Shown: one piece after another, positions 3,707 to 17,160 of the stretch
How positions within the stretch are numbered: position 1 is the stretch's first letter
Layout of the letters: each line of letters begins with the position of its first letter
Assembly (NCBI GenBank): GCA_963790805.1
Contig: CAWBPL010000002.1
Span: forward strand, 1,148,860-1,212,859
From: Candidatus Gottesmanbacteria bacterium
GTDB lineage: Bacteria > Patescibacteriota > Microgenomatia > UBA10105 > UBA927
Reading direction: 5' to 3'
Length of the DNA: 64,000 bases
Made by a program: the position numbers and the translations under genes
The notes under the pieces: model-generated
Database searches by the model: none
Told to the model about the DNA's origin: nothing
Seen by the model: only the letters and a program-made list of their open reading frames with translations

Positions 3707-3780
3707 GCCCCCTTCGTCTAGCGGCCTAGGACAACGGGTTTTCAGCCCGTGAATCGCCGGTTCGAATCCGGCAGGGGGTA
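3707..3780 (+). tRNA. tRNA-Glu (anticodon UUC)
   Basis: Hand-folded cloverleaf: acceptor GCCCCCT/AGGGGGT, anticodon loop TTTTCAG (anticodon TTC), T arm GCCGG-TTCGAAT-CCGGC, discriminator A. No encoded CCA. Confidence 0.85.
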
Positions 3781-3818
3781 CTTGAGGCTAAAAGCTTAAT
3801 GAATTATTTGGATTCCCG

Positions 3819-4367
3819 CTATTCTCCCTCTATTGGCTTTTTTGTGACACTAAGGTGAACATGTTCCTTAAATTTTTCTGCCTGAACGTCTAAAACAACA
3901 GTTTGTTTGTCTTCGGAAAGAGATACGGTCCATTTCATTTCTGCATCAACAATATTTTCCACATCATGGGTGTTTGGGCAATCCTGACCCCACGCTCGGT
4001 CAATATTTATGACTTTACCTCTTGTTTGAATAGTAATTACTTTTCCCGCTTCCAATGATTTCAAAGAGTCGTAGAATATTTTAGCGGGAATTGCAGGACC
4101 ACGATATTCGAAGGACTTATCATCATCCGCACCAATTGCATTATAAGATTCGTCTCTCGTGCAGACTATGGCCAAGTCAACATGTGCTCCGTTAGCATTA
4201 ATAAGAGTTTGTTCAGAAAAATATGGAGTTTGAAATTCATAGTAACTTCTGTTTTCCGGCCTTATCTGAACTGGAGGCTGACGAAGTATTTGAAGCGCAA
4301 GTAACCCATCTGGGGAGAGGGTCTCATCTTCAGTATGACTAATAGGTGTAAGTTCTGCTTGGCTCAT
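3819..4367 (-). CDS. Hypothetical protein (island gene 1)
   Basis: 182-aa ORF with no recognisable motif. Stop lies 38 nt from the tRNA-Glu 3' end. Upstream extended -10 TGCTATAAT at 4399-4391. Confidence 0.55.
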   Translation of the reverse strand: MSQAELTPISHTEDETLSPDGLLALQILRQPPVQIRPENRSYYEFQTPYFSEQTLINANGAHVDLAIVCTRDESYNAIGADDDKSFEYRGPAIPAKIFYDSLKSLEAGKVITIQTRGKVINIDRAWGQDCPNTHDVENIVDAEMKWTVSLSEDKQTVVLDVQAEKFKEHVHLSVTKKPIEGE

Positions 4368-4490
4368 AGAAGTCTATTTAGGTTTAGGTTATTATAGCAC
4401 TATAAATCAAATAATCATGATTTACAAAATGACTAAGGCTACATAAGTTAGACATAAAATTTCCACTTCCTGCCTATTTAACACAAACCA

Positions 4491-4522
4491 GGTTCGTATA
4501 CGGTCTCGTAGGGGGTACGAAT
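4491..4522 (+). repeat. Island repeat copy m1 (tRNA-Glu 3'-end-like)
   Basis: GGTTCGTATACGGTCTCGTAGGGGGTACGAAT, 20 nt beyond the stop of 4543-4998. Compare tRNA-Glu GGTTCGAATCCGGCAGGGGGTAC. Confidence 0.7.
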
Positions 4523-4542
4523 TTAGAGCGTCATTACAACAA

Positions 4543-4998
4543 TTATTCCCGCTTTCCCATCTGGCTTACTTCAAAAAATATAGCCATTCTACCGACTAGC
4601 TCTAAAACCATTGGTTTACCAGATGGTCCCAATATGTTTGTATCGTACTCTGTGGCATAACTTCCGTCTTGAAAACGAGGCTCACCAACACCATATGAAG
4701 CTATAAGTTGGCGTTGCGCTTCTTTTGATAACATCGAAAAACTAATATTCATGTGGTCACGACCGTTCACACGTTCCCGAACCTTTTTTTCCGCTTCTAC
4801 ATTTTCTACTATTATTTCATGTACATCTTTAAGCTCTTCATCAACGTGCTTACCATCAGCTAATTGTGCACGCCGTATAACCTCTTTAATACCTTGTTCA
4901 AAAGGATCTCCCTCTCCATGATCTTCGGATATATTGCTATGAGAAGGATTTACAACCTCTTTTCTCCTACCGCCGAATAAGTTCCATTTTGGAGCCAT
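4543..4998 (-). CDS. Hypothetical protein (island gene 2)
   Basis: 151-aa ORF, charged, no recognisable domain. -10 TAAAAT followed by 8 nt before the ATG. Confidence 0.55.
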   Translation of the reverse strand: MAPKWNLFGGRRKEVVNPSHSNISEDHGEGDPFEQGIKEVIRRAQLADGKHVDEELKDVHEIIVENVEAEKKVRERVNGRDHMNISFSMLSKEAQRQLIASYGVGEPRFQDGSYATEYDTNILGPSGKPMVLELVGRMAIFFEVSQMGKRE

Positions 4999-5288
4999 AG
5001 AAAGCTATTTTACATCATTTATATCATTTTTTCTGTTAGCTACATAACAATTTCTGTTAAGACATCTTCACTAGATATTAAATTCTAATATTCTGTGGTA
5101 GATACGCTGTAAGCCGTTTTGAGGCTAGGCTCAAGTAAACCTTTCCACGCCCGAATTGATGCTAGAATCTGGTTCCATTGGGAAACCAGCTGTGGGGTAT
5201 ACGAAGCTAAAATTTATAATTGATCTCCCAAAGAAAGCAACCGAGCTAAATTGACACACAATTTGAATAGCGTCATACTAACGATGTT

Positions 5289-6071
5289 ATGAAAAAGCGA
5301 CCTGTGCTCATAACAATTTATAGTTGGTTTCTGATTGTTACAGGAATAATTGGGATAATTGCGTCAATTCCAATTATTAGTCTCTATGTAGCTATTCATA
5401 ATGGAGGATTTTTGCTTAAAGATAAAGACAAAATAATAGCAGTCTCTCCGAACTCGCCAGCCGCACAAGCTCATCTTCAACCCGGTGATTCCATACTTTC
5501 TATACAAGGAGCCACAATGACAGATGCGAGTCAGGTGGTAAACACGATCCAAAGATATAAAGGACAATCAGTACAACTGACAGTTGAACATAACGGAGTA
5601 CGTGAACTAGTATCAATTATCCCAAGAGTTAATCCTCCTATTGGTCAAGGAGATCTTGGTATAGTTGTTGGAAGCACATATAAGGTTTCACGAGAGCCGA
5701 TGATTCAAGTTTTCTCAGAGATTATCCTGAAGGGGTACACTGGATATGAATACACTCCTACGCAAAGTTCTGCTTTTTCTCTCAACGACCGGTCCCTTGT
5801 CCGTTTAAGAGCATTATTATTCGGTGTAGCCGACATTGTTATTGGTATTGGCTTTCTGAAAATGAAACTATGGGCGTTTTATAGTTATTTTGCTACTAGA
5901 ATTGTCTATTTCATTCTTTCCATTCCATCTCTTATGAAATTGCCGGCGTCCCTAACTGCTTTTGGTAACTCAGGTTTAATTTCAAAAACGGTTATACCAA
6001 TAGTAATTGGATATTTAATCGAAATTTACATTTGGATATATTTGTATCGTAATAAAGCTAGGTTTAAGTGA
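5289..6071 (+). CDS. PDZ-domain membrane protein
   Basis: N-terminal TM helix, PDZ-like segment SPAAQAHLQPGDSILSIQGATMTDASQVVNTIQRYKGQSVQLTV, then several C-terminal TM helices. Confidence 0.65.
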   Translation: MKKRPVLITIYSWFLIVTGIIGIIASIPIISLYVAIHNGGFLLKDKDKIIAVSPNSPAAQAHLQPGDSILSIQGATMTDASQVVNTIQRYKGQSVQLTVEHNGVRELVSIIPRVNPPIGQGDLGIVVGSTYKVSREPMIQVFSEIILKGYTGYEYTPTQSSAFSLNDRSLVRLRALLFGVADIVIGIGFLKMKLWAFYSYFATRIVYFILSIPSLMKLPASLTAFGNSGLISKTVIPIVIGYLIEIYIWIYLYRNKARFK

Positions 6072-6140
6072 AACTATACAATTTTTATCTCATACATCAA
6101 ACTCATAAGAATCGCTTACTTCTAATTTGTAGTAATCCAT

Positions 6141-6166
6141 GTTCGTATATGGTCTCAGGGGGTACC
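6141..6166 (+). repeat. Island repeat copy m2
   Basis: GTTCGTATATGGTCTCAGGGGGTACC, ending 1 nt before the stop of 6168-6749. About 94% identical to m1 over 30 nt. Confidence 0.75.
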
Positions 6167-6167
6167 T

Positions 6168-6749
6168 TTATTTTTCAGCAAGCAAATAGTACGGATTCGC
6201 TGCGTTTTGGCTCTGAATGAGTGGTGAACCAAAATTGACAATATGAAATTTATAGGAAACGTCAGATTGTGCGCACTTTTCTCTAAATTTTCCTATTAAT
6301 TCCGACTGCAACACATCAATTTCGTGCGCCCAGTGCGCTTGTGCCGACCATACACCCTCTGGTTGTTCGATCATCTGGTTAGGTTTTTGAGCTGCAAATA
6401 CAATATCGATGTCACTACCGACTTTTAGCGGAGTTCCTTTTACCCTCCCACCTACCGCATATATTTTCATATGACCCGCCGAGAGCCTAAATTCGTCTAG
6501 TGTTGTTTTGTAAATATCCAGCATTCCTCGGGATAAATCCGGCAATTTATCAAAAATAGGCATCAGAGTCAGTAGCAGATATTGCCGTATATCTTCTTCA
6601 CCTATACTTTCTACCGGTGACTGTTGTCTGAAAAATTCTCTGATTTCGTTATCACGATGTCGTTTCAACAACTCATTACCAAACACACGATATCTACCTT
6701 CTAGAATTTCCATACATTGTATTATCGTATAACCAGTCTGATACGACAA
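6168..6749 (-). CDS. Nucleotidyltransferase-domain protein (Pol-beta superfamily, minimal NTase-like)
   Basis: NTase motif YAVGGRVKGTPLKVGSDIDIVFA (G-G/S...D-x-D). TTG start in the ORF track. No HEPN partner seen. Confidence 0.6.
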   Translation of the reverse strand: MSYQTGYTIIQCMEILEGRYRVFGNELLKRHRDNEIREFFRQQSPVESIGEEDIRQYLLLTLMPIFDKLPDLSRGMLDIYKTTLDEFRLSAGHMKIYAVGGRVKGTPLKVGSDIDIVFAAQKPNQMIEQPEGVWSAQAHWAHEIDVLQSELIGKFREKCAQSDVSYKFHIVNFGSPLIQSQNAANPYYLLAEK

Positions 6750-6829
6750 GGCAAATAAGAATTATTTAAATAGTTACCTCTCAATATGAAGCTAACAAGT
6801 CCTCCTCTTGAGGATTTTCCTTCACACAT

Positions 6830-6856
6830 GTTCGTATAAGGTCCCCAAGGCGGAAG
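6830..6856 (+). repeat. Island repeat copy m3
   Basis: GTTCGTATAAGGTCCCCAAGGCGGAAG, 7 nt before the stop of 6864-7454. The left flank AGGATTTTCCTTCACACATG is shared with m4. Confidence 0.65.
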
Positions 6857-6863
6857 AACGGGA

Positions 6864-7454
6864 TTACACCGATTGCTCTGCGGCAATGAGTTCATCGTGC
6901 ACAGACTCTAAGCAAAAGGTCCAAACATCAAAAGATGGCTGATCTGATGGACTAATTGATTGGGTAACTATCGATTCAGATTCACTTCCTTCTCCCGTAT
7001 CCAAAAGCTTAACGAGAGCTTCTTGCGAACTATTCGGCCGCTCATTGCCTATTGCTGCCATTACCCGCTTCTCGATATCAGCTCTATTGATTATATACGG
7101 AGAATTCTCATGTATCCTTTTTGCTTTTTCTGGAGCTTGATCTGGATCTAAAGTGACAATTTGGTACGCCAAACTTTTCGCTTCGTTATTTACTGCCAGT
7201 GGCAGTTGGAACATCCTGATAACGAGTTCACCATTCGTTATGCGGCCGAAACTCTCAGTGAGCAAAAATTCGGGTTTTAGATAGGTTATTTCTTGCTCCG
7301 AAGTAACACCTAAAAACCTGTACTGAGTCGTTCTTTTTACTCCAGTCTCAATTTTAAACAGTTTTAGGCTGCCTCCTCTCCTTCTCACTACGCCGTCAAG
7401 CTCAGATAGCTTAACGGGAATTTCTGCCTCGCTTTTGAGAGGTTCCCCTTCCAT
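6864..7454 (-). CDS. Hypothetical protein (island gene)
   Basis: 196-aa ORF with no recognisable domain. Extended -10 TGCTAAAAT followed by 9 nt before the ATG. Confidence 0.55.
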   Translation of the reverse strand: MEGEPLKSEAEIPVKLSELDGVVRRRGGSLKLFKIETGVKRTTQYRFLGVTSEQEITYLKPEFLLTESFGRITNGELVIRMFQLPLAVNNEAKSLAYQIVTLDPDQAPEKAKRIHENSPYIINRADIEKRVMAAIGNERPNSSQEALVKLLDTGEGSESESIVTQSISPSDQPSFDVWTFCLESVHDELIAAEQSV

Positions 7455-7557
7455 ATTTACGTAATTTTAGCACAAACCGCTTCAACCTTTCAGAATGCGC
7501 AAATTCTATACGTCATCCCTTAATATCCATATTTCCCTAGGATTTTCTCTCAAATGG

Positions 7558-7586
7558 ATTCGTATATTGTCTCTTCGAGGGATACT
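7558..7586 (+). repeat. Island repeat copy m4
   Basis: ATTCGTATATTGTCTCTTCGAGGGATAC, 4 nt before the stop of 7591-8550. Left flank AGGATTTTCTCTCAAATGGA. Confidence 0.6.
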
Positions 7587-7590
7587 CATT

Positions 7591-8550
7591 TCAGGCTTTC
7601 TCTAAAAGCCAAACGGCGAAGGGCGGATTGGCGATGTATTTTTCCCCGAGTTTTGATTCGGGATCTAAGGGTTCATTGTAGATTTCTAATTCTTTTCGAG
7701 TTGAAAAACCCTGACTATATTCTGTAAGTATTTTTAACTCATTCCTATCAAATGCATTCCGGTATTCCTGCACAGAGTGATAGAAGTTGGGTACGACGAG
7801 GCCCGGCAATTTTCTCCAGATTTCCTCACCAGAGCTGATAGTGCTTTCATCGGATACTCGTACAACTTTTCCGTCACGAGTGGAAAACGTAGCTAAAAAT
7901 ACACCTGAAACAGGTGTCAGATGCTCTTGGATAACGGCAAGACGCAGCGGATCAGAACTCGCGTTAATTAAGGCGAGCCTGCTGTCAACATCTGCAACGA
8001 CTTCGTTTCGACTTCTTGTCCCACCCGTAAACATGATGCCAAAAGAAGCCGGTGCCGTGACAACCGCTTTTCCTTTCTGTCGTAAAACACGGGATAATTC
8101 GGAAAAATGAGCAAAAAACCCTTCTCGTTCGCTTGCTGCATTTGGCAGATTGCATCCCACCTGAATGCTTAATGCCGTATCAAATGTACCCGACGCAAAT
8201 TCTAGGTGTGCCCCGTCGCCTTTTTGTACATGGATTTTATCACTCAGTTTCGCCTGCGCTACGGCATCTTTGGCTTTATCAACCATATCCTGTTGATAAT
8301 CTATGGATACGACCTCTGAGGCACCGTGTTGGGCGGCATAGATAGACCAAGGGGCGAGACCTGAACCGATGTCGATGACTCTGCCTTCCACATGAACAAG
8401 GAGTTCCTCAATATAGCCGCTTAAAAACCTTTGTCTATCCGAATGGTGCGTCGTTTGGGAATATGCGCTCGCTGCATCTTTACCATAATGTGTACCTGAG
8501 GCTGTGTGTCCGTCTTTTTCGTTGGCAACCATACCGTATGCGCTGATCAT
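7591..8550 (-). CDS. Class I SAM-dependent methyltransferase
   Basis: Motif I VIDIGSGLAPWSIYAA, acidic post-I residue (VVSIDYQQ), Rossmann-type order. 319 aa. Confidence 0.7.
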   Translation of the reverse strand: MISAYGMVANEKDGHTASGTHYGKDAASAYSQTTHHSDRQRFLSGYIEELLVHVEGRVIDIGSGLAPWSIYAAQHGASEVVSIDYQQDMVDKAKDAVAQAKLSDKIHVQKGDGAHLEFASGTFDTALSIQVGCNLPNAASEREGFFAHFSELSRVLRQKGKAVVTAPASFGIMFTGGTRSRNEVVADVDSRLALINASSDPLRLAVIQEHLTPVSGVFLATFSTRDGKVVRVSDESTISSGEEIWRKLPGLVVPNFYHSVQEYRNAFDRNELKILTEYSQGFSTRKELEIYNEPLDPESKLGEKYIANPPFAVWLLEKA

Positions 8551-8592
8551 AACAAATTCTCATACGTATTGGTAGTTTAAAGGGAAAATCGA

Positions 8593-8964
8593 TTATTGCC
8601 GAGCCGGTTCAAGCCCATCGGCCCACTTCAGAAGAGAACTCGCGATCGCCGGTCCGATGGTTGAGCTAAGCGGTATACACGTATCTATTTTATTATTTGC
8701 TAAAAACATTCCAAACGTTGACTCTGCAAGTCCTCCAAGAACTGGTATCGCAAAGGGGTCATCAGCCACCGAATCGACGGGGACGCCTCCGTGACTTATG
8801 CGCAGTCCAAGAGCAACAAGATATACCGCTAACGTACCAGTCACTAATATCCCAGTAACGGCGTCTTTTGGCGTATACATCTTCGCGGACACTTCATTGA
8901 TTCTTAGTCCCGCTTTACCGGCGAGTTCACCGACCTTATACGATAGACATTGTTCTGGCGCCAT
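8593..8964 (-). CDS. Hypothetical membrane protein
   Basis: 123-aa ORF with 2-3 hydrophobic segments. A weak fifth repeat-like sequence (8563-8588) sits just past its stop. Confidence 0.45.
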   Translation of the reverse strand: MAPEQCLSYKVGELAGKAGLRINEVSAKMYTPKDAVTGILVTGTLAVYLVALGLRISHGGVPVDSVADDPFAIPVLGGLAESTFGMFLANNKIDTCIPLSSTIGPAIASSLLKWADGLEPARQ

Positions 8965-9020
8965 AAACGTCCATTATACATATATCCTGTTATTTTTCAA
9001 TTCAACGGCGACTCTCGTCC

Positions 9021-9029
9021 TGCTATAAT
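9021..9029 (+). promoter_or_regulatory. Extended -10 promoter of the VIT1-family gene (near-leaderless)
   Basis: TGCTATAAT followed by 8 nt and then the ATG at 9038. Confidence 0.45.
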
Positions 9030-9037
9030 AAGTTCGT

Positions 9038-9769
9038 ATGGTTGAGGAACCGCACAAACCAGAGCATATATACGGGGAAAAGGACCGCATAAATGCCGTT
9101 TCCAAAATTCGCGAAATCGTTTTCGGGGCGCAGGACGGGTTACTGGTTCCACTGGGCGTTGTTTCCTCTGTGGCCGGCGCATTTAGCAATAATCATATCG
9201 TCATCGTCGCAGGCATTTCAGAAGCGCTCGCGGGAGCATTTTCCATGGCAACAGGCGCATATCTGGCGACGCAGGCAGAACAGCAGGTCCATACTGCGCA
9301 AATTTTGAAAGAGGAAAAGGAGATAGACGAATATCCAGAAGATGAAAAAAAGGAGATGAGCTTATTGTTTGAACGGGAAGGAATGCCGAATGCTGACGCC
9401 GATACCATCTCGAATATGCTCTGGAAACATAAAAAATCATTTATCTACACCATGGTACAAAAAGAGCTGGGTCTGGAACCTGAACCCGCCGATAATATTC
9501 TACAGGATTCATTACTTGTCGGCGTTTCATATCTTGTGGCCGCAATGATTCCACTGTTCCCATATTTTTTCCTCAAAGGGTTTTCAGCCATCATCGCATC
9601 AATACTTGCCACCTTTGTTGCTCTTTTCGGCATTGGCGTTGCGAAGGGAAAATTCGCGTCTCTTCCGTATATCAAAAGCGGTTTACAGGTCTTGCTTGTC
9701 GGTGCCGGAGCCGGCATCGGAGGATATTTTTTAGGAACAATGCTCCCCCATGTGCTGGGAATTCAATAA
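9038..9769 (+). CDS. VIT1/CCC1-family iron/manganese transporter
   Basis: REIVFGAQDGLLVPLGVVSSVAG signature, central acidic helix, C-terminal TM bundle. Confidence 0.8.
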   Translation: MVEEPHKPEHIYGEKDRINAVSKIREIVFGAQDGLLVPLGVVSSVAGAFSNNHIVIVAGISEALAGAFSMATGAYLATQAEQQVHTAQILKEEKEIDEYPEDEKKEMSLLFEREGMPNADADTISNMLWKHKKSFIYTMVQKELGLEPEPADNILQDSLLVGVSYLVAAMIPLFPYFFLKGFSAIIASILATFVALFGIGVAKGKFASLPYIKSGLQVLLVGAGAGIGGYFLGTMLPHVLGIQ

Positions 9770-9787
9770 TAATTGCTGATGGAGATT

Positions 9788-10342
9788 TTAAATTCCAGCC
9801 GATAAACTTATTACATTGACCGCATTGGATAAATGCGTTACCCAAGGGTTATCAACTGCGAGGCGCAGTTCAAATAATTTCGCAACGGCTATAAAATCTT
9901 TGATCTCGGAAATTCTGTTTTGCGGGCCGGTAAAAATCTGTTCAAATTGTTTTACCGTTTCTTTTGCATATCCCTCAGCTGGCTTAGTGAGCACGATATG
10001 TTCGAGGTAGCGAACTATTTTTTGAAACTCATTCCTGTCTAACCAAACACCGCCGCATTTTTTGCAAACGCCGATAACTACTTTTGATTCCGAATATGTT
10101 TTTGAGGTAAGTTTTATATGGCATTGTGGACATACCTTACCGCTTTCCTCTGATGTATATTTCCCTTTCACATCCTCAAATACATTGAAGTCTAACCATC
10201 GAAGATAATTATCCTTGCTGTCAATTGCTTTTTTCAGCTCGTCATGATCAAACCATTTCCCGCCGCACGTAGTACATTCACAGATGTTGACACCCAAATA
10301 TGAAGCTATTTTGAGCACATTGCCACAATCGGGACATTTCAT
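9788..10342 (-). CDS. Zinc-ribbon protein (two TFIIB-type CxxC...CxxC modules)
   Basis: MKCPDCG...CTTCGGKWFDHDEL and CPQCH...CKKCGGVWLDRNEF. Confidence 0.6.
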   Translation of the reverse strand: MKCPDCGNVLKIASYLGVNICECTTCGGKWFDHDELKKAIDSKDNYLRWLDFNVFEDVKGKYTSEESGKVCPQCHIKLTSKTYSESKVVIGVCKKCGGVWLDRNEFQKIVRYLEHIVLTKPAEGYAKETVKQFEQIFTGPQNRISEIKDFIAVAKLFELRLAVDNPWVTHLSNAVNVISLSAGI

Positions 10343-10381
10343 ATATGTAGCGATAATATCATACTACGATATGGATTAGTA

Positions 10382-10993
10382 CTAAATTTTAGATTCAAAT
10401 ACGTGAATGCCGATTTGCGAAGCAAGCTGTTCGATCTGCTCAGGAGTAAAAATTGCTCCTTTTAGATTATCTGTTTGTAAGTTGAATCCCTGTATTTCCG
10501 CTCCACGAAAATCTGTCATATCTAATTTTGCCTTATCCAGCTTTATGTTTATTATTCGCGAATTGATAAATAACGTTTTGGAGAGATCCGAAAGCGATAG
10601 GTCGGTTTCAAAAAAAGAACTTTTCGACAAATCGAGTCCTGAAAGATCAACACCCCGCAAGTCCGCATAATCGAAATTACATCGGCTAAATTTGACGCCG
10701 ATCAGTGAATTTGCGCGTGAAAATACAACGCCCATTAATTTGCACTCAATAAATGCAGTGGAAAAGAAATTCGAACCCGAAACATTTGCATTGCTGAAGT
10801 TACAGTTGGTAAATACCGCATTGTTACATTTCGTTCCTGTTAGATCGCATTTGGCAAAAGAACAGTTCGTGAAGCTAGTTTCCTGTAAATTGCTGTTTTT
10901 TATAACGCACGCATCAAATATGCAATTTTTATACGATTCCCCTGTTTTCAGTTGATCAATTTCCTCCTGCGTGTAGATTTTAGGCTTCTGCAT
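10382..10993 (-). CDS. Pentapeptide-repeat protein
   Basis: Long run of A(D/N)LxX-type pentapeptides, for example NCSFAKCDLTGTKCNNAVFTNCNFSNANVSGSNF. Confidence 0.85.
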   Translation of the reverse strand: MQKPKIYTQEEIDQLKTGESYKNCIFDACVIKNSNLQETSFTNCSFAKCDLTGTKCNNAVFTNCNFSNANVSGSNFFSTAFIECKLMGVVFSRANSLIGVKFSRCNFDYADLRGVDLSGLDLSKSSFFETDLSLSDLSKTLFINSRIINIKLDKAKLDMTDFRGAEIQGFNLQTDNLKGAIFTPEQIEQLASQIGIHVFESKI

Positions 10994-11005
10994 ATTGAAA
11001 TAATG

Positions 11006-11458
11006 TTACTGCGTAACACTTATGGTAGCACCTAACTGCGAAGCTGGAGCGGCGACAGTAAGACGGCTGTTGGCGGCACTTTTAAAAATTGTGTAATTTG
11101 TATTGTACGCTGAGGTACAATCTGTCACTGCTGTACCGTTATTGGTAAGCGGGTCAACAGGAAGGGCTGCGATATACGTCGGAACAAGCATTGAGCATAA
11201 GTCAACTCCTCCCGACTGTTCTATGGTTTGCACACTGGTTAATACGCCAGCGGGATATACGCCTCGGTTGGCAACAGCATAATGCTCTACTGCATTTAAG
11301 ATGGCGCTAACGTCGCTTCTTCGCTTCGTATTATTGGCCTGCTGAAATTGCCGTGCAGGATTGAGAGCTACAAGGACGATTGCAACAAGAACAGCAATAA
11401 TTCCTATAACGACAACCAGTTCTATAAGAGTAAAACCTCTGCGCCGTAATGAGTACAT
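11006..11458 (-). CDS. Type IV pilin / pseudopilin (prepilin-type N-terminal methylation domain)
   Basis: MYSLRRRGFTLIELVVVIGIIAVLVAIVL: class III signal peptide with a G/F cleavage site and E+5. Start moved to the internal Met at 11458. Confidence 0.85.
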   Translation of the reverse strand: MYSLRRRGFTLIELVVVIGIIAVLVAIVLVALNPARQFQQANNTKRRSDVSAILNAVEHYAVANRGVYPAGVLTSVQTIEQSGGVDLCSMLVPTYIAALPVDPLTNNGTAVTDCTSAYNTNYTIFKSAANSRLTVAAPASQLGATISVTQ

Positions 11459-11521
11459 ACTGATATCAAAATCTACCCTTAGCGTAGCGTTGATAATCAG
11501 GAAAATCAATAATGAATGCAA

Positions 11522-12061
11522 TTACTGCTTTTTATCAGGTACAAAATAGAGAGCAACCGAATTCATGCAATAACGTTTACCCGTAGGCTTCGGTCCGTCA
11601 TCAAACACGTGACCCAAATGGCTTGCGCATTTATCAAGTACCTCAACTCGCGGTTCAGAGGGTATACTATCATCTTCGCGAAGTACGAGCGCCTCTGGGC
11701 TTATCGGTGCCCAAAAACTCGGCCAGCCCGTGCCGGAATCATATTTTTGTTCAGAACGAAATACCGGCTCATTACATCCGACGCTGTAATACGTACCTTT
11801 TCTGTTTTCAGAATCCAAAACCCCGCTAAAGGGGATTTCCGTTCCCTGTTCCCGCAATATGTTGTACTGTGTTGGTGTGAGAATCTTTCTCCACTGGCTA
11901 TCCGACTTGAATTTTGTCTGGTCAAAGGAACCGGATATGATTTTTCCAGCTGGTTGAGCGCTTCCTCTAACAAATCCCTGTATAACAGGAAAGTTTCTAT
12001 ACCATAAAGCAACGGTAAATAGAAAAAGTATGCCTGCGATAATCAGAAACTTTTTACTCAT
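11522..12061 (-). CDS. msrB: Peptide-methionine (R)-S-oxide reductase MsrB with N-terminal membrane anchor
   Basis: GTGWPSF and RYCMNS catalytic motifs. N-terminal KKFLIIAGILFLFTVALW hydrophobic anchor or signal. Confidence 0.9.
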   Translation of the reverse strand: MSKKFLIIAGILFLFTVALWYRNFPVIQGFVRGSAQPAGKIISGSFDQTKFKSDSQWRKILTPTQYNILREQGTEIPFSGVLDSENRKGTYYSVGCNEPVFRSEQKYDSGTGWPSFWAPISPEALVLREDDSIPSEPRVEVLDKCASHLGHVFDDGPKPTGKRYCMNSVALYFVPDKKQ

Positions 12062-12158
12062 AACAATGTACGATACTTTACATATTGTAGCGGTTTTTCA
12101 CGTAGTTCGTCAAAAATCGATCAGTAAAGCGTAGTAGAATAGATACAGAGCCGCTCCT

Positions 12159-12680
12159 ATGTCCAACAAACAATCGCAACTAACAGAAAAACGCATCGAG
12201 GAGGAATTCCATGTCTCGTGGTTTATCGTCGCGTATAAATTTCTGTTTGGACTTATCGAATTTCTCTCGGGCGTAGGAATCGCTACATTCGGCAAAAATA
12301 TCCTGTCCATATACAGGCTGTACGTTAGACAGGAACTCATGGAAGAGCCTCATGATTTACTCATCCGCTTCAGTGAGAAAGTCGTCCCGCATATTCTTAC
12401 CCATAACGGGTTTATCCTTGTTTATTTAATTCTTTTGGGCGCCGCAAAAATGGCAGGAGCGGTGGGTCTTATGTATAAACAAATGTGGGGTGTTGATCTT
12501 TTAATCGTTCTTACTGTACTGCTATTCCCGTTCCAATTTATTACCATTCTTTTCCACCCGTCGTTTTTTAATATCTTCTATCTTTTAACAGGGCTTCTTA
12601 TTGCCTTATACCTTGTTAATTTCAGACCAAAAGAATGGGCTGTCAGAATGGTTGGTAACGTAAGAAAAAAGAGGAATTGA
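12159..12680 (+). CDS. DUF2127-like integral membrane protein
   Basis: 173 aa with four hydrophobic helices. Family assignment is from memory only. Confidence 0.5.
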   Translation: MSNKQSQLTEKRIEEEFHVSWFIVAYKFLFGLIEFLSGVGIATFGKNILSIYRLYVRQELMEEPHDLLIRFSEKVVPHILTHNGFILVYLILLGAAKMAGAVGLMYKQMWGVDLLIVLTVLLFPFQFITILFHPSFFNIFYLLTGLLIALYLVNFRPKEWAVRMVGNVRKKRN

Positions 12681-12687
12681 TAGAACC

Positions 12688-12717
12688 GCAGGGCTATTGA
12701 AACCCCTGCAGGTTTTG
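12688..12717 (+). terminator. Intrinsic terminator between convergent genes
   Basis: GCAGGG-ctattgaaac-CCCTGC hairpin followed by AGGTTTTG. It overlaps the last codons of the minus-strand gene 12694-13044. Confidence 0.45.
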
Positions 12718-13044
12718 CATCTGACTATCGATTTGTGCGTTGAGCGAGTGTCCGATATTAAATATTTCAATAACAGTGACAATAAGTGAAAGAACAGTCA
12801 AACCAATACAAATCATTCCTACGCGTTTGGAGGCAGGGTCATCCTGCTTATAATAGCGGTACCCCCAAATGAACCCGAATGGCGGTAATAAGATGCTTCC
12901 TGCATAATACAGAAGTTGCGTCATAAGCTGTGTTGACGGAGGTTTTTCATGAAGGTTCTTCCCGCAGTTGTAGCAAAAAAAATCTGATGGACGGACGGCT
13001 ACATGACAGACCGGACACGTTGGTTCCATATATTCATTGTACAC
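12694..13044 (-). CDS. Zinc-ribbon membrane protein
   Basis: N-terminal CPVCH...CYNCG zinc ribbon followed by two TM helices. Confidence 0.55.
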   Translation of the reverse strand: MYNEYMEPTCPVCHVAVRPSDFFCYNCGKNLHEKPPSTQLMTQLLYYAGSILLPPFGFIWGYRYYKQDDPASKRVGMICIGLTVLSLIVTVIEIFNIGHSLNAQIDSQMQNLQGFQ

Positions 13045-13084
13045 ACGTTTGCTCCGTTATCACAAGAGAAATTGTGTAGCCGCT

Positions 13085-13750
13085 CTAGGCCAATGAGGAA
13101 ATCCGAAGAACGTCAAAACACTCGGCGTATGTGCCCTTTTCCAGCATGGCTCCCCGATATCGGTTCAGGCCGCGCGCGGCTTCATCGTAGGCTACGTTGG
13201 CAAGCTGGGTTTTGTGTTTGCGCAGCGCTTCAATTTTCTTACCTATAACACCGCTTATGTCTTCGACGTACGTAATTCGTTCAAGCGGAGTCCATACTTC
13301 ATAGGCGAGGATTGATCCGACATCCCATGGTGACCCTTCGTATTCTTGAAAGGCGTTCCCTCTGGCGCGGCCGATCGCCTCCATAACGATTATGTGAGTA
13401 TTCTTATGATCTCCGTGACCGTCGTTTTTGTGCGGAAGATATACGCGGTCCGGCTTGTAGTCTCTGATCATTTTAACCAGCGTTTTTAAAATTTCTGAGG
13501 AATAGGTAATGAAACCATCGGGCAACCGCAAAAAAGTACTTTGATGAACATCCATCGCCCCTAACGCTTCGTGAGCTTCCTGTTCCCGCATTCTTGCCAA
13601 TTCGCTTTTAGGTATAGTGCGGCTTCCTGATTCCCCTGACGTAAGGTATACGACGTGAACGTCATGTCCGGATTGCCGTAATTTTATAATACTACCGCCA
13701 CAGCCTATGACATCATCATCAGGATGCGGTGCGAAAACGAATACGTTCAT
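13085..13750 (-). CDS. PIG-L/LmbE-family N-acetylglucosaminyl deacetylase
   Basis: FAPHPDDDVIGCGG and HKNDGHGDH metal motifs. ATGA overlap with the upstream GT4 stop, with start set at Met 13750. Confidence 0.85.
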   Translation of the reverse strand: MNVFVFAPHPDDDVIGCGGSIIKLRQSGHDVHVVYLTSGESGSRTIPKSELARMREQEAHEALGAMDVHQSTFLRLPDGFITYSSEILKTLVKMIRDYKPDRVYLPHKNDGHGDHKNTHIIVMEAIGRARGNAFQEYEGSPWDVGSILAYEVWTPLERITYVEDISGVIGKKIEALRKHKTQLANVAYDEAARGLNRYRGAMLEKGTYAECFDVLRISSLA

Positions 13751-15000
13751 ATATTTTCCTCTTTCATCAATATAGTATACAGTGAAGAAATTTGTTTTGC
13801 TGTACTGGCCCATGTCAGATCTTTTATCCGCAGGCGGATTGATTTACCGATTTCCTCACGATTCTTCGGATCAAGTAATAGATATTCTATCTGAGACGCG
13901 AGAAGCAGAGGGTTGTTGACAGACGTAATAAGCGACCCATGTTTTTCGTCGATAAGACTCGACACTCCCGTCGCATTCGTGGTAATAACTGGCGTACCGC
14001 ACGCCATAGCTTCAAGCGCCGCCATACCGAATGATTCATAATGTGATGGCATGACAACGACATTTGCTGCGTTGTAATAATAGGGCAAGGTGTGCTGCGG
14101 TTGCTGGCCGACAAAATTTACGTTTGCGGTAAGATGCAACAGCGTTCTAATTGTATTTAACGATTTCAGTGTTTCTGACCATGCCTCAGGAACCTGCGAT
14201 ATATCGCCGCCCACGATGCATAAATACACGGGAATATTTGGATTGCGCTGTGTAACTATTTTTAGCGCGTACAAAAGAAGATCAATTCCCTTTAAGGGTT
14301 CTATCCGTCCGGCAAAAAGAATTAATTTCTGTTCGTGCGATACATGAATATAATCCTTTGCTGTATTCATATCTATGGGGCGAAATAAATTCATATCAAC
14401 GCCCGGAGGAATAACGGCTATTTTTTCCTTCTTGGCACCGTAAAAAAACTCAAGATAGCTTTTTTCACTTTCACTGGGCGCCACGATGCGGTCAACCTGT
14501 GTAATTAAAAGTTTTTCTGCCTCAATCCGTTTTGGATCCTCTTTTTCCGCATCATTTCTGGCAACAAGATTTTTCATAAGCGCTAAAGTATGAAATGACA
14601 TGATAATGGGTATTTTTGGCTTCAATCGACTCTGAATTTGTACGGCGATAAGACCGGACAAATAATAGTGTGCGTCGAGTGCATCATATGTTACGTGTTC
14701 TTTTGAGCAAAAATCGATAAACGCGTTAACAAAATCCGGTATATAGGGCGCAAGTTCTTTTTTGGATATCGGTTTCTCCCCTCCTGCAACAAGGTGAATA
14801 ACACGAAGTGACGGTGAAACATTCACGATCGCCTCATTATCGGCTCCCTGCGATCGGGTAAATATATCAACTGTATACCCAAGCCCGACAAGTGCCCGAC
14901 CTAATTCCAACGTATAGACATTCATTCCACCTGACTCTTTCCCTTCTTCGCTGGCTAAGGGACAGGTATGATAGGAAATCATTGCGATGCGTTGTTTCAT
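13747..15000 (-). CDS. GT4-family glycosyltransferase (MshA/BshA-like)
   Basis: N-terminal ISYHTCPLASEEGKESGGMNVY resembles MshA. C-terminal E-x7-E region (FGMAALEAMACGTPVI). Confidence 0.8.
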   Translation of the reverse strand: MKQRIAMISYHTCPLASEEGKESGGMNVYTLELGRALVGLGYTVDIFTRSQGADNEAIVNVSPSLRVIHLVAGGEKPISKKELAPYIPDFVNAFIDFCSKEHVTYDALDAHYYLSGLIAVQIQSRLKPKIPIIMSFHTLALMKNLVARNDAEKEDPKRIEAEKLLITQVDRIVAPSESEKSYLEFFYGAKKEKIAVIPPGVDMNLFRPIDMNTAKDYIHVSHEQKLILFAGRIEPLKGIDLLLYALKIVTQRNPNIPVYLCIVGGDISQVPEAWSETLKSLNTIRTLLHLTANVNFVGQQPQHTLPYYYNAANVVVMPSHYESFGMAALEAMACGTPVITTNATGVSSLIDEKHGSLITSVNNPLLLASQIEYLLLDPKNREEIGKSIRLRIKDLTWASTAKQISSLYTILMKEENI

Positions 15001-15052
15001 AAATAAGGTGTGGAAATTATTATACCATTACGCGTTGCTATCACGCGTTACC

Positions 15053-15214
15053 CTAATTATTTGATTGATCCGAAGGATTGTTGGTATCGTTCCCGATTTT
15101 CAAATTCAATTCGCCCTTAAATAATTTAAGAACCACCCAAACAACAACACCGATAATAAGTGCTATAAGAAGTCCTATCGCTCCTAACGCTGCAAGAAGT
15201 ATTCCTTGAATCAT
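15053..15214 (-). CDS. Unannotated 53-aa single-pass membrane protein
   Basis: Own translation: MIQGILLAALGAIGLLIALIIGVVVWVVLKLFKGELNLKIGNDTNNPSDQSNN*. Its ATG overlaps the response-regulator stop (ATGA). Too short for the ORF track. Confidence 0.5.
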   Translation of the reverse strand: MIQGILLAALGAIGLLIALIIGVVVWVVLKLFKGELNLKIGNDTNNPSDQSNN

Positions 15215-15606
15215 ATGGGTATTTCGTTTTTCACGACAAATGCGCTTAGCACATCATTAATGGTACGTACCAATTGCTTATTTTCCGTTTGACTCTTAAT
15301 GAGAAATTTTACGGCACCGTGCTTGAGTGCTTCGTCTTGGTAACTGCGGTCGGAAAGGTTTGTCAACATAATAACTGGAATTTTTTTTGTTTGTTCGTCA
15401 AACTGTAAAACGTCAAGCGCTTCAAAACCATTCATTGCAGGCATCATTATATCGAGTAATATAAGATCTGGTTTTTCCTCAACTGCTTTTTGGCGGCAGT
15501 TATTTGCGTTATCAATGGAAATAACAGTAAATCCCTCGGTTGTTAAAACATTTGTATATAAACGCGATTCTATAGGGTCGTCTTCCACAAGAAGAATTTT
15601 GTTCAT
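15211..15606 (-). CDS. Stand-alone response regulator receiver domain (CheY-like)
   Basis: KILLVEDD...DLILLDIMMPAMNG...K. No output domain and no adjacent histidine kinase. Confidence 0.85.
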   Translation of the reverse strand: MNKILLVEDDPIESRLYTNVLTTEGFTVISIDNANNCRQKAVEEKPDLILLDIMMPAMNGFEALDVLQFDEQTKKIPVIMLTNLSDRSYQDEALKHGAVKFLIKSQTENKQLVRTINDVLSAFVVKNEIPI

Positions 15607-15632
15607 ATGATAACAGTTGTACACTAGTGGAA

Positions 15633-16592
15633 TTAGTTATGCAAGAAATTTCCGTACTCACCAAACTGTTTATATCCCACGTTTAAAAAATCTAACAATG
15701 CTTTGCCGGTTCTATAACTCGGCCGGAGACGAAAAAGATAATACCGATTGGACAGGCTCTGTCGTTCACCCGGAATCGTTGATACTGCAGTACGAAAACC
15801 GGCGTTTTTTACTTCATCAATAGCCTGCTGGTCAAATTCTCCGTTTGGATATGCGAAAGAAACTACGGGAATATTATATTCCAACTCGAGAGTCTGCCGG
15901 CTGACATTCACTTCGCTTCGTACGAGCGAATCAGCCTTGCCCTTTAACGATACGTGATGAACGGTATGCGCTCCTATTTCAACGAGACCGCTGTTGATTA
16001 CTTCACGAAGCTGGGCGCTACTCATAAAATCCGCCCCGCCTATAAGGCCGGAGATAATATACGCTGTCGCTTTTACATGATATTTCTGCAGTATCGGTAA
16101 AACGACCGTCTCCAAATCCCAATGTCCGTCATCAAACGTTAAAAGAACCGGCTTTGCCGGAAGCGCCATTTTATTATCCAACACATCAGCCATCTCCTTT
16201 GCCGTCATAAATGTGTAACCGGCCGAAAGGAGTGTTTTTATTTGCTCTTCAAATACGTTCGGATTTATATCCAATGATTGCCGTATCGTATCGCGCTTAT
16301 CCTGCACATATTCAACGTAATGATACATAAGAATCGGAACAGTTATTGACGCCGACGGACTTGCTTCCTTTGATTGGTTTATCTGATTTCGTCTCACTTC
16401 GATCGGAATTCGTTTCATTTCACTTCGCGTTGATTCTATGACCGGATGTATTTGCACGGACAGAAACTTCCACAAAGCAAAAAAGAAAAGACCAAGAAGG
16501 ACTATATACGGCGCTCCGTGAACGACTAAATCGATACGATCGTTCAACGATTTTTTATGTCTTGTGTGTTTTTCCATAAACAAGTGTGTCAT
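15633..16592 (-). CDS. Polysaccharide deacetylase (NodB homology domain), membrane-anchored
   Basis: LLTFDDGHWD and HTVHH motifs. N-terminal TM helix. Confidence 0.85.
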   Translation of the reverse strand: MTHLFMEKHTRHKKSLNDRIDLVVHGAPYIVLLGLFFFALWKFLSVQIHPVIESTRSEMKRIPIEVRRNQINQSKEASPSASITVPILMYHYVEYVQDKRDTIRQSLDINPNVFEEQIKTLLSAGYTFMTAKEMADVLDNKMALPAKPVLLTFDDGHWDLETVVLPILQKYHVKATAYIISGLIGGADFMSSAQLREVINSGLVEIGAHTVHHVSLKGKADSLVRSEVNVSRQTLELEYNIPVVSFAYPNGEFDQQAIDEVKNAGFRTAVSTIPGERQSLSNRYYLFRLRPSYRTGKALLDFLNVGYKQFGEYGNFLHN

Positions 16593-16683
16593 TCTATTTT
16601 ACGGTTCAACGTAAAAATAGTCTACCGCAAAAAAATATATTCAGGCTTGATTTCTTCTGAAAATATCAGTACAGTAAGAGCCT

Positions 16684-17160
16684 ATGAATACACAACAAGA
16701 CGATGTCCCAACAACGAATCCGCCAATAACAGAAACGGCAACAACGGGCGCGCAAGATACCAATGCAGCGCAAGTGCTACTCGATCTTGAACAACTCATT
16801 AAAACACACATAGCCAATATCGATAAAGGCAAAGCGGAACTGAAAAAACAGCGCGAAATGCTCTCAAGCGTTCTTGATAACGATGAAACGTACAGGCTTC
16901 ACAACGAGGAAGCGAAAAAAGCGGCTAAAACCAGAGCGCAGACAAAATTCCAAATTATGCAGCAACCGCAGAATAAACAACTGGCGGATAAAATCCGGAC
17001 GACAGCAGCGGAAATAAAAGAACAGGACGGCGCATTATCAGATTATCTTCGTGAATATCAGCGTATGAGCGGATCCTCAGAAATTGAAACAGATGACGGT
17101 GAAGTCAGAGAAATCGTCTACGTAGCGAAACTAGTGAAAAAATCTTCCAGGCAAAAATAG
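16684..17160 (+). CDS. Hypothetical coiled-coil protein
   Basis: 158 aa, charged and helical. TTGATT-17-TACAGT promoter followed by 8 nt before the ATG. Confidence 0.5.
   Translation: MNTQQDDVPTTNPPITETATTGAQDTNAAQVLLDLEQLIKTHIANIDKGKAELKKQREMLSSVLDNDETYRLHNEEAKKAAKTRAQTKFQIMQQPQNKQLADKIRTTAAEIKEQDGALSDYLREYQRMSGSSEIETDDGEVREIVYVAKLVKKSSRQK

Follow-up and report, generated by a model that had tools for sequence, protein, structure and literature searches.

A stretch of 64,000 nucleotides from Candidatus Gottesmanbacteria bacterium (contig CAWBPL010000002.1, positions 1,148,860 to 1,212,859; the whole stretch is referred to below as the window) contains a tRNA-Glu gene whose 3′ side is occupied by a tandem array of small gene cassettes, each of which is closed, at the end distal to the tRNA, by one copy of a repeat of approximately 100 nt that we call the unit. 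A thymidine kinase (TK) gene lies just upstream of the tRNA gene, and six open reading frames (ORFs) follow on its 3′ side, five on the minus strand and one, encoding a membrane protein with a PDZ domain, on the plus strand. This gene order had been described in an earlier note on the same DNA and was confirmed by ARAGORN and the ORF calls. The parts of the locus are as follows (window positions; GC, guanine-plus-cytosine content; HMM, hidden Markov model).

3707..3781, plus strand: tRNA-Glu(TTC), the anchor of the array, called by ARAGORN; Rfam tRNA 56.8 bits; no encoded CCA.
3782..3793, plus strand: TTGAGGCTAAAA motif, directly 3′ of tRNA-Glu.
3782-4518: cassette 1, 737 nt, GC 0.39.
3819..4367, minus strand: gene of cassette 1, 182 aa, an orphan (ORFan) without Pfam, PADLOC or PHROG match.
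4420..4521, plus strand: unit m1, nhmmer E=8e-21, core GGTTCGTATACGGTCTCGTAGGGGGTAC at 4491-4518, the best-preserved copy.
4519-6165: cassette 2, 1647 nt, GC 0.38.
4543..4998, minus strand: gene a of cassette 2, 151 aa, without family match.
5085..5195, plus strand: conserved non-coding element within cassette 2.
5289..6071, plus strand: gene b of cassette 2, a 260-aa membrane protein with a PDZ domain, co-oriented with the units.
6069..6168, plus strand: unit m2, nhmmer E=3e-15, core GTTCGTATATGGTCTCAGGGGGTAC at 6141-6165, between convergent genes.
6166-6856: cassette 3, 691 nt, GC 0.40.
6168..6749, minus strand: gene of cassette 3, minimal nucleotidyltransferase-like (weak PF01909), its protein being called as 181 aa in another assembly.
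6758..6859, plus strand: unit m3, nhmmer E=2e-17, core GTTCGTATAAGGTCCCCAAGGCGGAAG, degenerate tail.
6857-7585: cassette 4, 729 nt, GC 0.43.
6864..7454, minus strand: gene of cassette 4, 196 aa, a near-ORFan.
7486..7588, plus strand: unit m4, nhmmer E=6e-15, core ATTCGTATATTGTCTCTTCGAGGGATAC, the outermost and most degenerate copy.
7591..8550, minus strand: gene for a methyltransferase dependent on S-adenosylmethionine, GC 0.47, flanking and outside the repeat-bounded array.

In the window, 3-25 nt separate the right edge of each unit from the stop codon of the minus-strand gene that follows, and m4 marks the distal end of the GC-poor array. The earlier note had counted the methyltransferase gene as a member of the array and had placed a weaker fifth copy of the repeat at 8563-8588. 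Neither proposal held: the GC content of the methyltransferase gene is core-like and no unit bounds it, and the family HMM detects neither that copy nor a look-alike at 9033 at E<=10. The repeat-bounded array is therefore 3782-7588, and the methyltransferase gene sits inside a larger variable region (3782-16683) that is missing from relatives.

When the 64 kb were searched with the core sequence GTTCGTATANGGTCTC, matches without mismatch were found at 4492 and 6141, with one mismatch at 6830 and with two at 7558, all on the plus strand. The total of six matches, against 1.0 expected, was reached in 0 of 100 shuffles, so that the four-copy, same-strand repeat proposed in the earlier note is real; the remaining two matches are chance hits with three mismatches. 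The repeat is larger than the approximately 28 plus 30 nt assigned to it there: it comprises a conserved left arm of ~70 nt and a core of ~28 nt, with a sharp right edge at ..TAGGGG(G)TAC. The core has the form (C)CAGGTTCGTATATGGTCTCGTAGGGG(G)TAC and the left arm contains a TTGAGGCTA-like motif, the named motifs of the unit being TTCGTATA, TAGGGG and TTGAGGCTA. To the right of the edge the sequences are unrelated, except for a short TTGAGGCTA-type motif in some copies. Unit quality in the window falls with distance from tRNA-Glu, as judged by core mismatches and HMM E-values.

For comparison, 32 related loci were retrieved via thymidine kinase, all of them from Gottesmanbacteria/Microgenomates-type Patescibacteria. 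Of the 32 loci, 25-32 share the upstream genes (RarA, DinB, that for an 87-aa protein, and TK) in synteny, and 22 have a tRNA-Glu close by. In the closest relative (L001, TK 78% identical), six units in the same orientation lie directly 3′ of its own tRNA-Glu, at 11472, 12986, 14022, 14898, 15643 and 16380, with an almost invariant core, CCAGGTTCGTATATGGTCTCGTAGGGG. Two more units flank a 161-aa gene on a 1.5-kb metagenome contig (L081). The genes between the units are wholly different in all three genomes, and the window ORFs from 3819 to ~12000 have no homolog in any of the 32 loci, in agreement with the variability that the earlier note had expected around this tRNA. Beyond ~12000, only two genes (12159-12680 and 13747-15000) have matches, both in L013, and synteny common to many relatives resumes at 16684.

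Across the 12 known units, conservation decreases from core to left arm to cargo: 27-30 nt are identical in four of the six L001 units, the arms are 55-74% identical, and the cargo shows no conservation. The nearest counterpart of each window unit lies in L001 and not among the neighbouring units of the window (m1 and r4, as well as m3 and r5, are 60% identical in the arm). Concerted evolution has not homogenised the units of the window; those of L001 and L081 show partial clustering by genome. The TTGAGGCTAAAA motif that follows the window tRNA also lies directly 3′ of L001 unit r3, is found in degenerate form inside unit left arms and recurs in the non-coding element at 5085-5195. It has 12 matches in L001 compared with 3.7 expected (0/100 shuffles), and is a candidate accessory (arm-type) binding site.

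Outside the arrays, no further copy of the unit turned up in the window, in its extensions (~20 kb) or in the 80 related loci, and nhmmer detected the family solely in these arrays (window and 80 loci); the tRNA-Lys gene of the same window has no such copies beside it. A scan of metagenome contigs with a 21-base pattern matched the L001-type array and L081 only. Within the sequences covered, this confinement speaks against the generic repeat that the earlier note had named as a possible undoing of its model, and against a dispersed repeat of the repetitive extragenic palindromic or miniature inverted-repeat transposable element type or a generic terminator.

The conserved sequence of the unit ends exactly at the position equivalent to the 3′ end of tRNA-Glu (..GGTTCGAATCCGGCAGGGGGTAC), the sequence that the unit cores imitate. 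Units m1 and m2 carry AGGGGGTAC, which is identical to the acceptor 3′ strand plus discriminator of this tRNA, and the alignment of core and tRNA (GGTTCG.AT..GG---C--AGGGGGTAC) runs from the T-loop to the 3′ end with a 5-nt insertion. In a lenient local alignment of the 12 units, the summed z was 7.0 for the window tRNA-Glu and 4.6 for the L001 tRNA-Glu, compared with -1.3 for a tRNA-Lys control, and m1 and m2 are also significant individually. The likeness to the T-loop and 3′ acceptor strand noticed earlier is thus specific to tRNA-Glu, but it is modest and confined to the last ~28 nt of the unit; the exact match in the window is only 9-10 nt long (m1 and m2), the rest of the core being a diverged imitation. 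No link between units and tRNA was returned by nhmmer or by the Rfam tRNA model (E<=1 for Rfam, window and L001 arrays), and the 70-nt left arm showed no likeness to the tRNA 5′ half or to the upstream promoter region in an alignment test. On this evidence the resemblance appears to be genuine, short and partial. In addition, the 12 units from three genomes share derived features, including the 5-nt insertion, that have no counterpart in the tRNA, and hence they are not simple decayed copies of the resident gene. Two related candidates were rejected: an internally deleted pseudo-tRNA composed of promoter, 5′ acceptor and D-arm (summed z 1.2 and -0.9, compared with -0.6 for the control) and a tRNA-like RNA or pseudo-tRNA gene (no Rfam tRNA match at E<=1, left 70 nt unrelated).

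Since the window units lie within 25 nt of stop codons of minus-strand genes, they might be expression elements, that is, promoters, terminators, 3′-untranslated-region (UTR) modules or small RNAs antisense to tRNA-Glu, and the earlier note had itself offered the antisense 3′-UTR reading. In favour of such a role, weak minus-strand promoter-like hexamers start at the left edge of each of the four units in the window, and UACCCCCUG has the capacity to pair with the tRNA 3′ end. However, the flanking genes run in both orientations, and m2 and r1 lie between convergent genes, which means that m2 cannot be a promoter and rules out a 3′-UTR or antisense role tied to a neighbouring mRNA. RNAalifold on 10-12 units predicted three pairs on the plus strand and none on the minus strand, single-stranded DNA folds of the units were no more stable than those of shuffled sequences (z -1.05 to +1.04, all within +/-1.1), and the units have no terminator signal, no Rfam match (window and L001 arrays) and no consistently placed promoter in L001. 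With no conserved RNA or single-stranded DNA fold on either strand, the units are not attC sites, terminators or structured RNAs. Together with the restriction of the unit to one locus, these results make a function in expression very improbable.

The cassettes differ from their surroundings in composition, with a GC content of 0.34-0.43 compared with 0.44-0.46 in the flanks. In the window, GC rises outward from the tRNA (0.387, 0.379, 0.401 and 0.430), and the most distal cassette of L001 is also the most host-like one (0.429). This rise, together with the decay of the units with distance, is the pattern expected from insertion at the tRNA-proximal end. Measured from unit end to unit end, six of 11 cassettes (window 3782-7585, L001 10755-16406 and L081) are 729-745 nt long (737, 729, 744, 745 and 736 are among the values listed) and two further ones are close (691 and 688 nt), a clustering that was observed post hoc in a small sample. 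The ORFs inside differ in length (447-591 nt) and sequence and may have either orientation, the shorter ones being padded by longer non-coding parts; genes in both orientations relative to the unit are exemplified by L001 cassette 1, the L081 genes and the window PDZ gene.

These data also bear on whether homologous recombination, tandem duplication with divergence or strain exchange, using the units as ~100-nt anchors, could have produced the array without a site-specific enzyme. Flexible islands of streamlined genomes are often exchanged by homologous recombination, the stretch of 27-30 nt that is perfectly identical among L001 units would serve such an exchange, and lengths near 740 nt would fit a duplicated template. 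The proteins of the cassettes, however, show no detectable similarity to one another and belong to unrelated families (PDZ, nucleotidyltransferase, NDK), gene orientation varies and GC points to foreign origin, while the sharp right edge of the unit and the co-variation of its tail with the local tRNA (described below) indicate a defined crossover. We therefore regard this explanation as extremely improbable.

The 182-aa protein has no homolog among 5.8e9 proteins (self-match only), and its AlphaFold2 (AF2) model is unusable, with a predicted local distance difference test (pLDDT) score of 35. The 196-aa protein has four distant matches among 1.8e9 representatives, and its AF2 model (pLDDT 80) has no significant fold match in PDB. 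The two strongest of these matches are giant proteins of ~2100 aa that match in 8-21 separate stretches, and from this pattern the 196-aa protein may be a free-standing copy of a repeat module. PADLOC and PHROGs gave no matches for the cargo, and PDB sequence and fold searches were uninformative. The ~110-nt non-coding element at 5085-5195, which contains TTGAGGCTAGGCTCAA and TTGATGCTA, is ~74% identical to L001 15475-15585, a stretch that belongs to an unrelated cassette; for the two sequences, RNAalifold gave 26 pairs with four compensatory changes, a weak possible fold, and no Rfam match was found for it.

Besides the three genomes with the unit family, no fewer than five other Gottesmanbacteria have analogous arrays. 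In L008, the 3′ end of the resident tRNA-Glu recurs twice, as an exact copy (AATCCGGCACGGGGTAC) and as a near copy that departs from it at two of 16 positions. The left arms of the two copies (~45 nt) are homologous, and one copy closes a single GTPase gene with a GC content of 0.35 compared with 0.52, the stop codon of which is 19 nt from the previous unit. In L015 (11383-11831), tRNA-Glu is followed by an insert of 356 nt whose only ORF encodes a ~95-aa GIY-YIG nuclease, and then by 19 nt that duplicate the tRNA 3′ end exactly, and L005 (8530-8951) has boundary arms homologous to those of L015 (CTTAAGCGAAG.GGAGAAT..) around unrelated content. Exact copies of the tRNA 3′ segment in relatives thus measure 16-19 nt in L008 and L015, with a 10-nt tail in L013. 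Two units each of a further family, ending in ..GTAGTATGGGG(G/A)TAC, are present in L013 and L014. The tails of the units co-vary with the acceptor sequence of each lineage (CACGGGGTAC, TACCGGGTAC and ATGGGGGTAC), and this connects the ends of the units with recombination involving the local tRNA.

A separate, x-type repeat family (TTCACCAACTTCGAACTAAAATTTGGTTGAAAATAGCCTCGTA...) lies 3′ of tRNA-Glu in L013 (16022-16557, two copies), L014 (4342-5043, two copies), L001 (16502-16632, just past the last array unit) and L019 (19660-19742), some copies having a tail like the tRNA 3′ end. Homology of the x-type units of L013 and L014 with the window family is suggestive by eye (GTTCG..GTA.GGGGxTAC), but the alignment is ambiguous, and they were treated as analogous.

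A second class of element that targets tRNA-Glu was found at L017 3101-4382 and L003 11341-12579 (and also at L007 4544-4694 and L027 11965-12111). In the L017/L003 class, the host tRNA-Glu breaks off behind position ~43. The L017 element brings a complete tRNA-Glu with a different acceptor stem, and the L003 element a tRNA-like gene without anticodon arm (Rfam tRNA 23.6 bits), each followed by a tyrosine integrase (PF00589).

Such elements raise the alternative that the units are passive fossil attR scars, functionless today, of integrase-carrying islands or prophages, which integrated serially at tRNA-Glu and decayed by deletion to one or two genes, and that small cassettes as such never moved. 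In L017 and L003, tRNA-Glu is indeed a target of elements with an integrase (PF00589 beside a truncated tRNA-Glu), the window units degrade with distance from the tRNA, and degenerate partial tRNAs are scattered through Prochlorococcus islands (bioRxiv 10.1101/2020.12.28.424599). On the other hand, not one of more than 20 cassettes in seven genomes has an integrase gene or fragment, and cassette sizes are narrow (the cluster at 729-745 nt). Independent decay would be expected to yield divergent remnants, yet the 12 units have in common a non-tRNA core with the 5-nt insertion, and this core has changed less than the arms. Furthermore, the L017 and L003 elements use an anticodon-arm sublocation and leave 5′ fragments that are absent from the window and L001. 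Fossil scars are therefore, in our estimation, an unlikely explanation.

We instead lean, with only slightly more confidence than doubt, towards a tRNA-Glu-anchored array of small integrase-less cassettes, in which the ~100-bp units are att-type sites and serial site-specific recombination is carried out by an enzyme acting in trans. According to this model, the 3′ end of tRNA-Glu would be a hot spot of site-specific integration in this Gottesmanbacteria lineage, and 3782-7588 would be a tandem array of four horizontally acquired cassettes with one or two genes each and their own promoters. Each cassette would end, distal to the tRNA, in an att-type unit (~70-bp left arm and ~28-bp core). The array would most likely have grown at its tRNA-proximal end, by one conservative site-specific recombination after another, so that each new arrival displaced the older cassettes outward. 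Since no cassette has room for a recombinase gene and no such gene lies close by, we infer that the enzyme is supplied in trans. It is recombination, on this account, that would have made the array, with the crossover probably at or just after ..TAGGGG. A crossover within the T-loop would wreck the tRNA, because the right half of the unit does not provide a functional tRNA end; the exchange would thus take place at or after ..TAGGGG, or between two units. In its essentials, the earlier picture of stacked att remnants, or of an integron-style array on a non-attC site, is supported by the L001 array, the displaced tRNA ends of relatives and the GC-poor cassettes.

Several observations weigh against this trans-acting model. 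A crossover in the T-loop would destroy the tRNA, and the partner sites may accordingly be tRNA and unit or two units. Classical tRNA-att duplications are identical to the end of the tRNA, which the core is not, and the statistically modest tRNA resemblance is not significant singly in m3, m4 and the L081 units s1 and s2. The unit family has been seen in three genomes only, on the basis of the window with its extensions, related loci and metagenome contigs, and it may be more widely dispersed. Two scans of viral_contigs revealed no phage or plasmid carrier of the unit, the one match, of 18 nt within a gene of a phage, being due to chance. Neither ORFs nor fragments of tyrosine or serine recombinases were detected in the 64-kb window, in the 10 kb on either side of it, where only housekeeping genes are found, or in the L001, L008, L013 and L014 loci; the stretch devoid of a recombinase gene extends from about -9 to +70 kb. 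These searches used tblastn with XerD, gamma-delta resolvase and 11 PF00589 integrases (window, L001, L082-L084 and the arrays of relatives), as well as Pfam on 40 window ORFs and precomputed Pfam listings of the 10-kb extensions, which contain no recombinase domain; that the cassettes hold no integrase, as the earlier note had stated, is likewise the outcome by tblastn. The L003-type integrase has 11 relatives in the protein collection, none of them on the 1.22-Mb contig of the window genome. Finally, no mobility was seen: gene order is the same in every assembly with these proteins, with no alternative contexts in the collection. In an independent assembly of the same sample (ERR11594402), two contigs (the end of L089 and the start of L084) stop within the T-arm/acceptor of tRNA-Glu, at 3761-3775; such breaks are explicable by co-occurring relatives that share the tRNA sequence and are not evidence of cassette mobility.

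One conceivable source of the activity is a Xer-type recombinase of the host, the chromosome-dimer resolvase of the cell, which would have built the array from dif-like sites and made a dedicated integrase unnecessary. The start of the unit core matches the XerC arm of Escherichia coli dif at 8 of 11 positions. It also (as GGTTCGTATAT/GGTTCGTATAA) resembles the XerC-binding arm ATTTCGTATAA of Acinetobacter plasmid-borne dif (pdif) sites (PMC9947245, PMC5790767, PMC10132070), and single-gene modules without an internal recombinase are typical of dif modules. However, the units have neither a second, XerD-type arm nor an 11-6-11 dyad, and the XerC-arm match is a short half-site that could be due to chance. 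GC skew is negative throughout the window, and in the absence of a switch at the locus this is not a terminus/dif region. In addition, the sites on either side of a pdif module have inverse orientations, but the units here are without exception direct repeats. A Xer origin for the array is accordingly judged quite improbable. The likeness to pdif modules and integrative mobile elements exploiting Xer recombination (IMEX) otherwise concerns small, often single-gene modules with short sites, no recombinase of their own and a XerC-arm-like core start (ATTTCGTATAA), and the array differs from them in lacking a XerD arm, in its direct rather than alternating sites and in residing at a chromosomal tRNA locus instead of a plasmid or dif (PMC5790767, PMC9947245).

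Among known systems, the islands at ssrA of Dehalococcoides (McMurdie et al. 2011) are instructive. They are arranged in tandem directly 3′ of the gene for transfer-messenger RNA (tmRNA), each bounded by a direct repeat of the gene 3′ end; insertion was mapped to the T-loop, GC content is low, and an extra conserved motif without match in the RNA gene lies just upstream of each repeat (PMC3146451). Some of them have no integration module and were discussed as cis-mobilizable (PMC3146451). The Gottesmanbacteria array is similar in its tandem accretion, upstream extra motif, T-loop sublocation and low GC. The Dehalococcoides islands differ in carrying many genes each, extending up to 100 kb downstream of ssrA, with a serine-integrase module (DsiB) in 16 of them and an exact 20-bp ssrA repeat, whereas the cassettes here are 0.2-1.6 kb long and have no recombinase, and their ~100-bp repeat holds a diverged, insertion-bearing imitation of the tRNA end.

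Similarly, the tycheposons of Prochlorococcus (Hackl et al.) integrate at tRNAs in a streamlined genome, successive integrations push older elements inward, and the elements are separated by partial tRNA copies (bioRxiv 10.1101/2020.12.28.424599). Integration at a tRNA, stacked elements and degenerate partial tRNAs are common to both systems. In contrast to the array, tycheposons have their own tyrosine or serine recombinases and replication modules, span several kb and are bounded by plain tRNA copies, and no regular single-gene array with a conserved ~100-bp arm has been described in their islands.

Cis-mobilizable elements (CIMEs) are also att-bounded, lack an integrase, stack in tandem and can be moved by an integrase acting in trans (PMC5704250), and the structure of the array is, as far as sequence can tell, compatible with such an element. 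CIMEs differ in being derived from and adjoining complete integrative and conjugative or integrative and mobilizable elements that supply the integrase, while the Gottesmanbacteria elements are far smaller and more numerous and no partner was found. Accretion at att sites in streptococci has reportedly been described by Pavlovic in 2004 and by Bellanger in 2011. Measured against tRNA-targeting islands in general, the array has the expected composition (GC 0.38-0.43 compared with 0.46) and no homologs in the 32 loci, but, unlike the L017 and L003 elements, no integrase of its own beside the att site.

The remaining parallel is with integrons and with clusters of attC sites lacking integron-integrases (CALINs), which Mazel (2006) and Cury et al. 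(2016) are said to have described. The cassettes resemble them in being mostly single-gene and ORFan, with one co-oriented site each and variable cargo that turns over, and CALINs likewise lack a nearby integrase. Sites within one chromosomal integron array are highly alike. In contrast to an integron, the array shows no attC hairpin or R''/R' symmetry and no IntI or attI (no IntI-type recombinase is adjacent by tblastn and Pfam, and attC folds were not found), and its cassettes have apparent promoters of their own, mixed orientation and a tRNA anchor. It is possible, though rather doubtful, that we are dealing with an integron analogue of the candidate phyla radiation (CPR) lineage, a platform for gene capture at the 3′ end of tRNA-Glu in which free circular mini-cassettes of preferably ~740 bp, each with one linear, non-hairpin site of ~100 bp whose core mimics the tRNA from T-loop to 3′ end, would be inserted and excised by a recombinase encoded elsewhere in the genome; in that same doubtful case, bacteria that otherwise have few mobile elements would obtain ORFan genes in sets peculiar to each strain. 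Taking all these comparisons together, the locus is best filed as a miniature, integrase-less variant of the known tRNA/tmRNA-anchored tandem accretion of islands.

The array is only the tRNA-proximal part of what varies here. Another ~9 kb (7589-16683) contains further genes that are missing from the loci of nearly all relatives, including those for the methyltransferase, VIT1, zinc-ribbon, pentapeptide, pilin-like, MsrB, DUF2127, PIG-L, GT4 and polysaccharide deacetylase proteins. In L004 and L012, only ~2 kb separate tRNA-Glu from the conserved downstream genes (homologs of those at window 16684 or 17933), from which the flexible region in the window is put at ~13 kb. The largest inserts of other relatives (4-7 kb, in L011, L013, L014 and L031) are also on the 3′ side of tRNA-Glu. 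About half of the relatives have the tRNA on the TK strand and the others have it on the reverse one, which suggests inversions of tRNA-Glu plus its flexible region. Clusters of ~25-30-nt repeats that are unrelated to the units occur ~8 kb upstream of TK in L011 (1192-1927 and 6660-6688) and L012 (1410-2144).

CPR bacteria have tiny genomes and few recognised mobile elements, and strain-specific gene gain in them is poorly understood. The comparison of related genomes shows a recurrent, lineage-wide mechanism by which the 3′ side of tRNA-Glu accumulates one-gene cassettes with att-like units, the cargo being fully replaced from one related species to the next. Mobilisation of the cassettes in trans, if it occurs, would represent a second, structurally different solution to the capture of single genes at a fixed site, and two units together with candidate recombinases would then offer a testable substrate, and the unit a search model for other uncultured lineages. 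Even if the units are fossil att sites, tRNA-Glu would be the main hot spot of the flexible genome in this clade.

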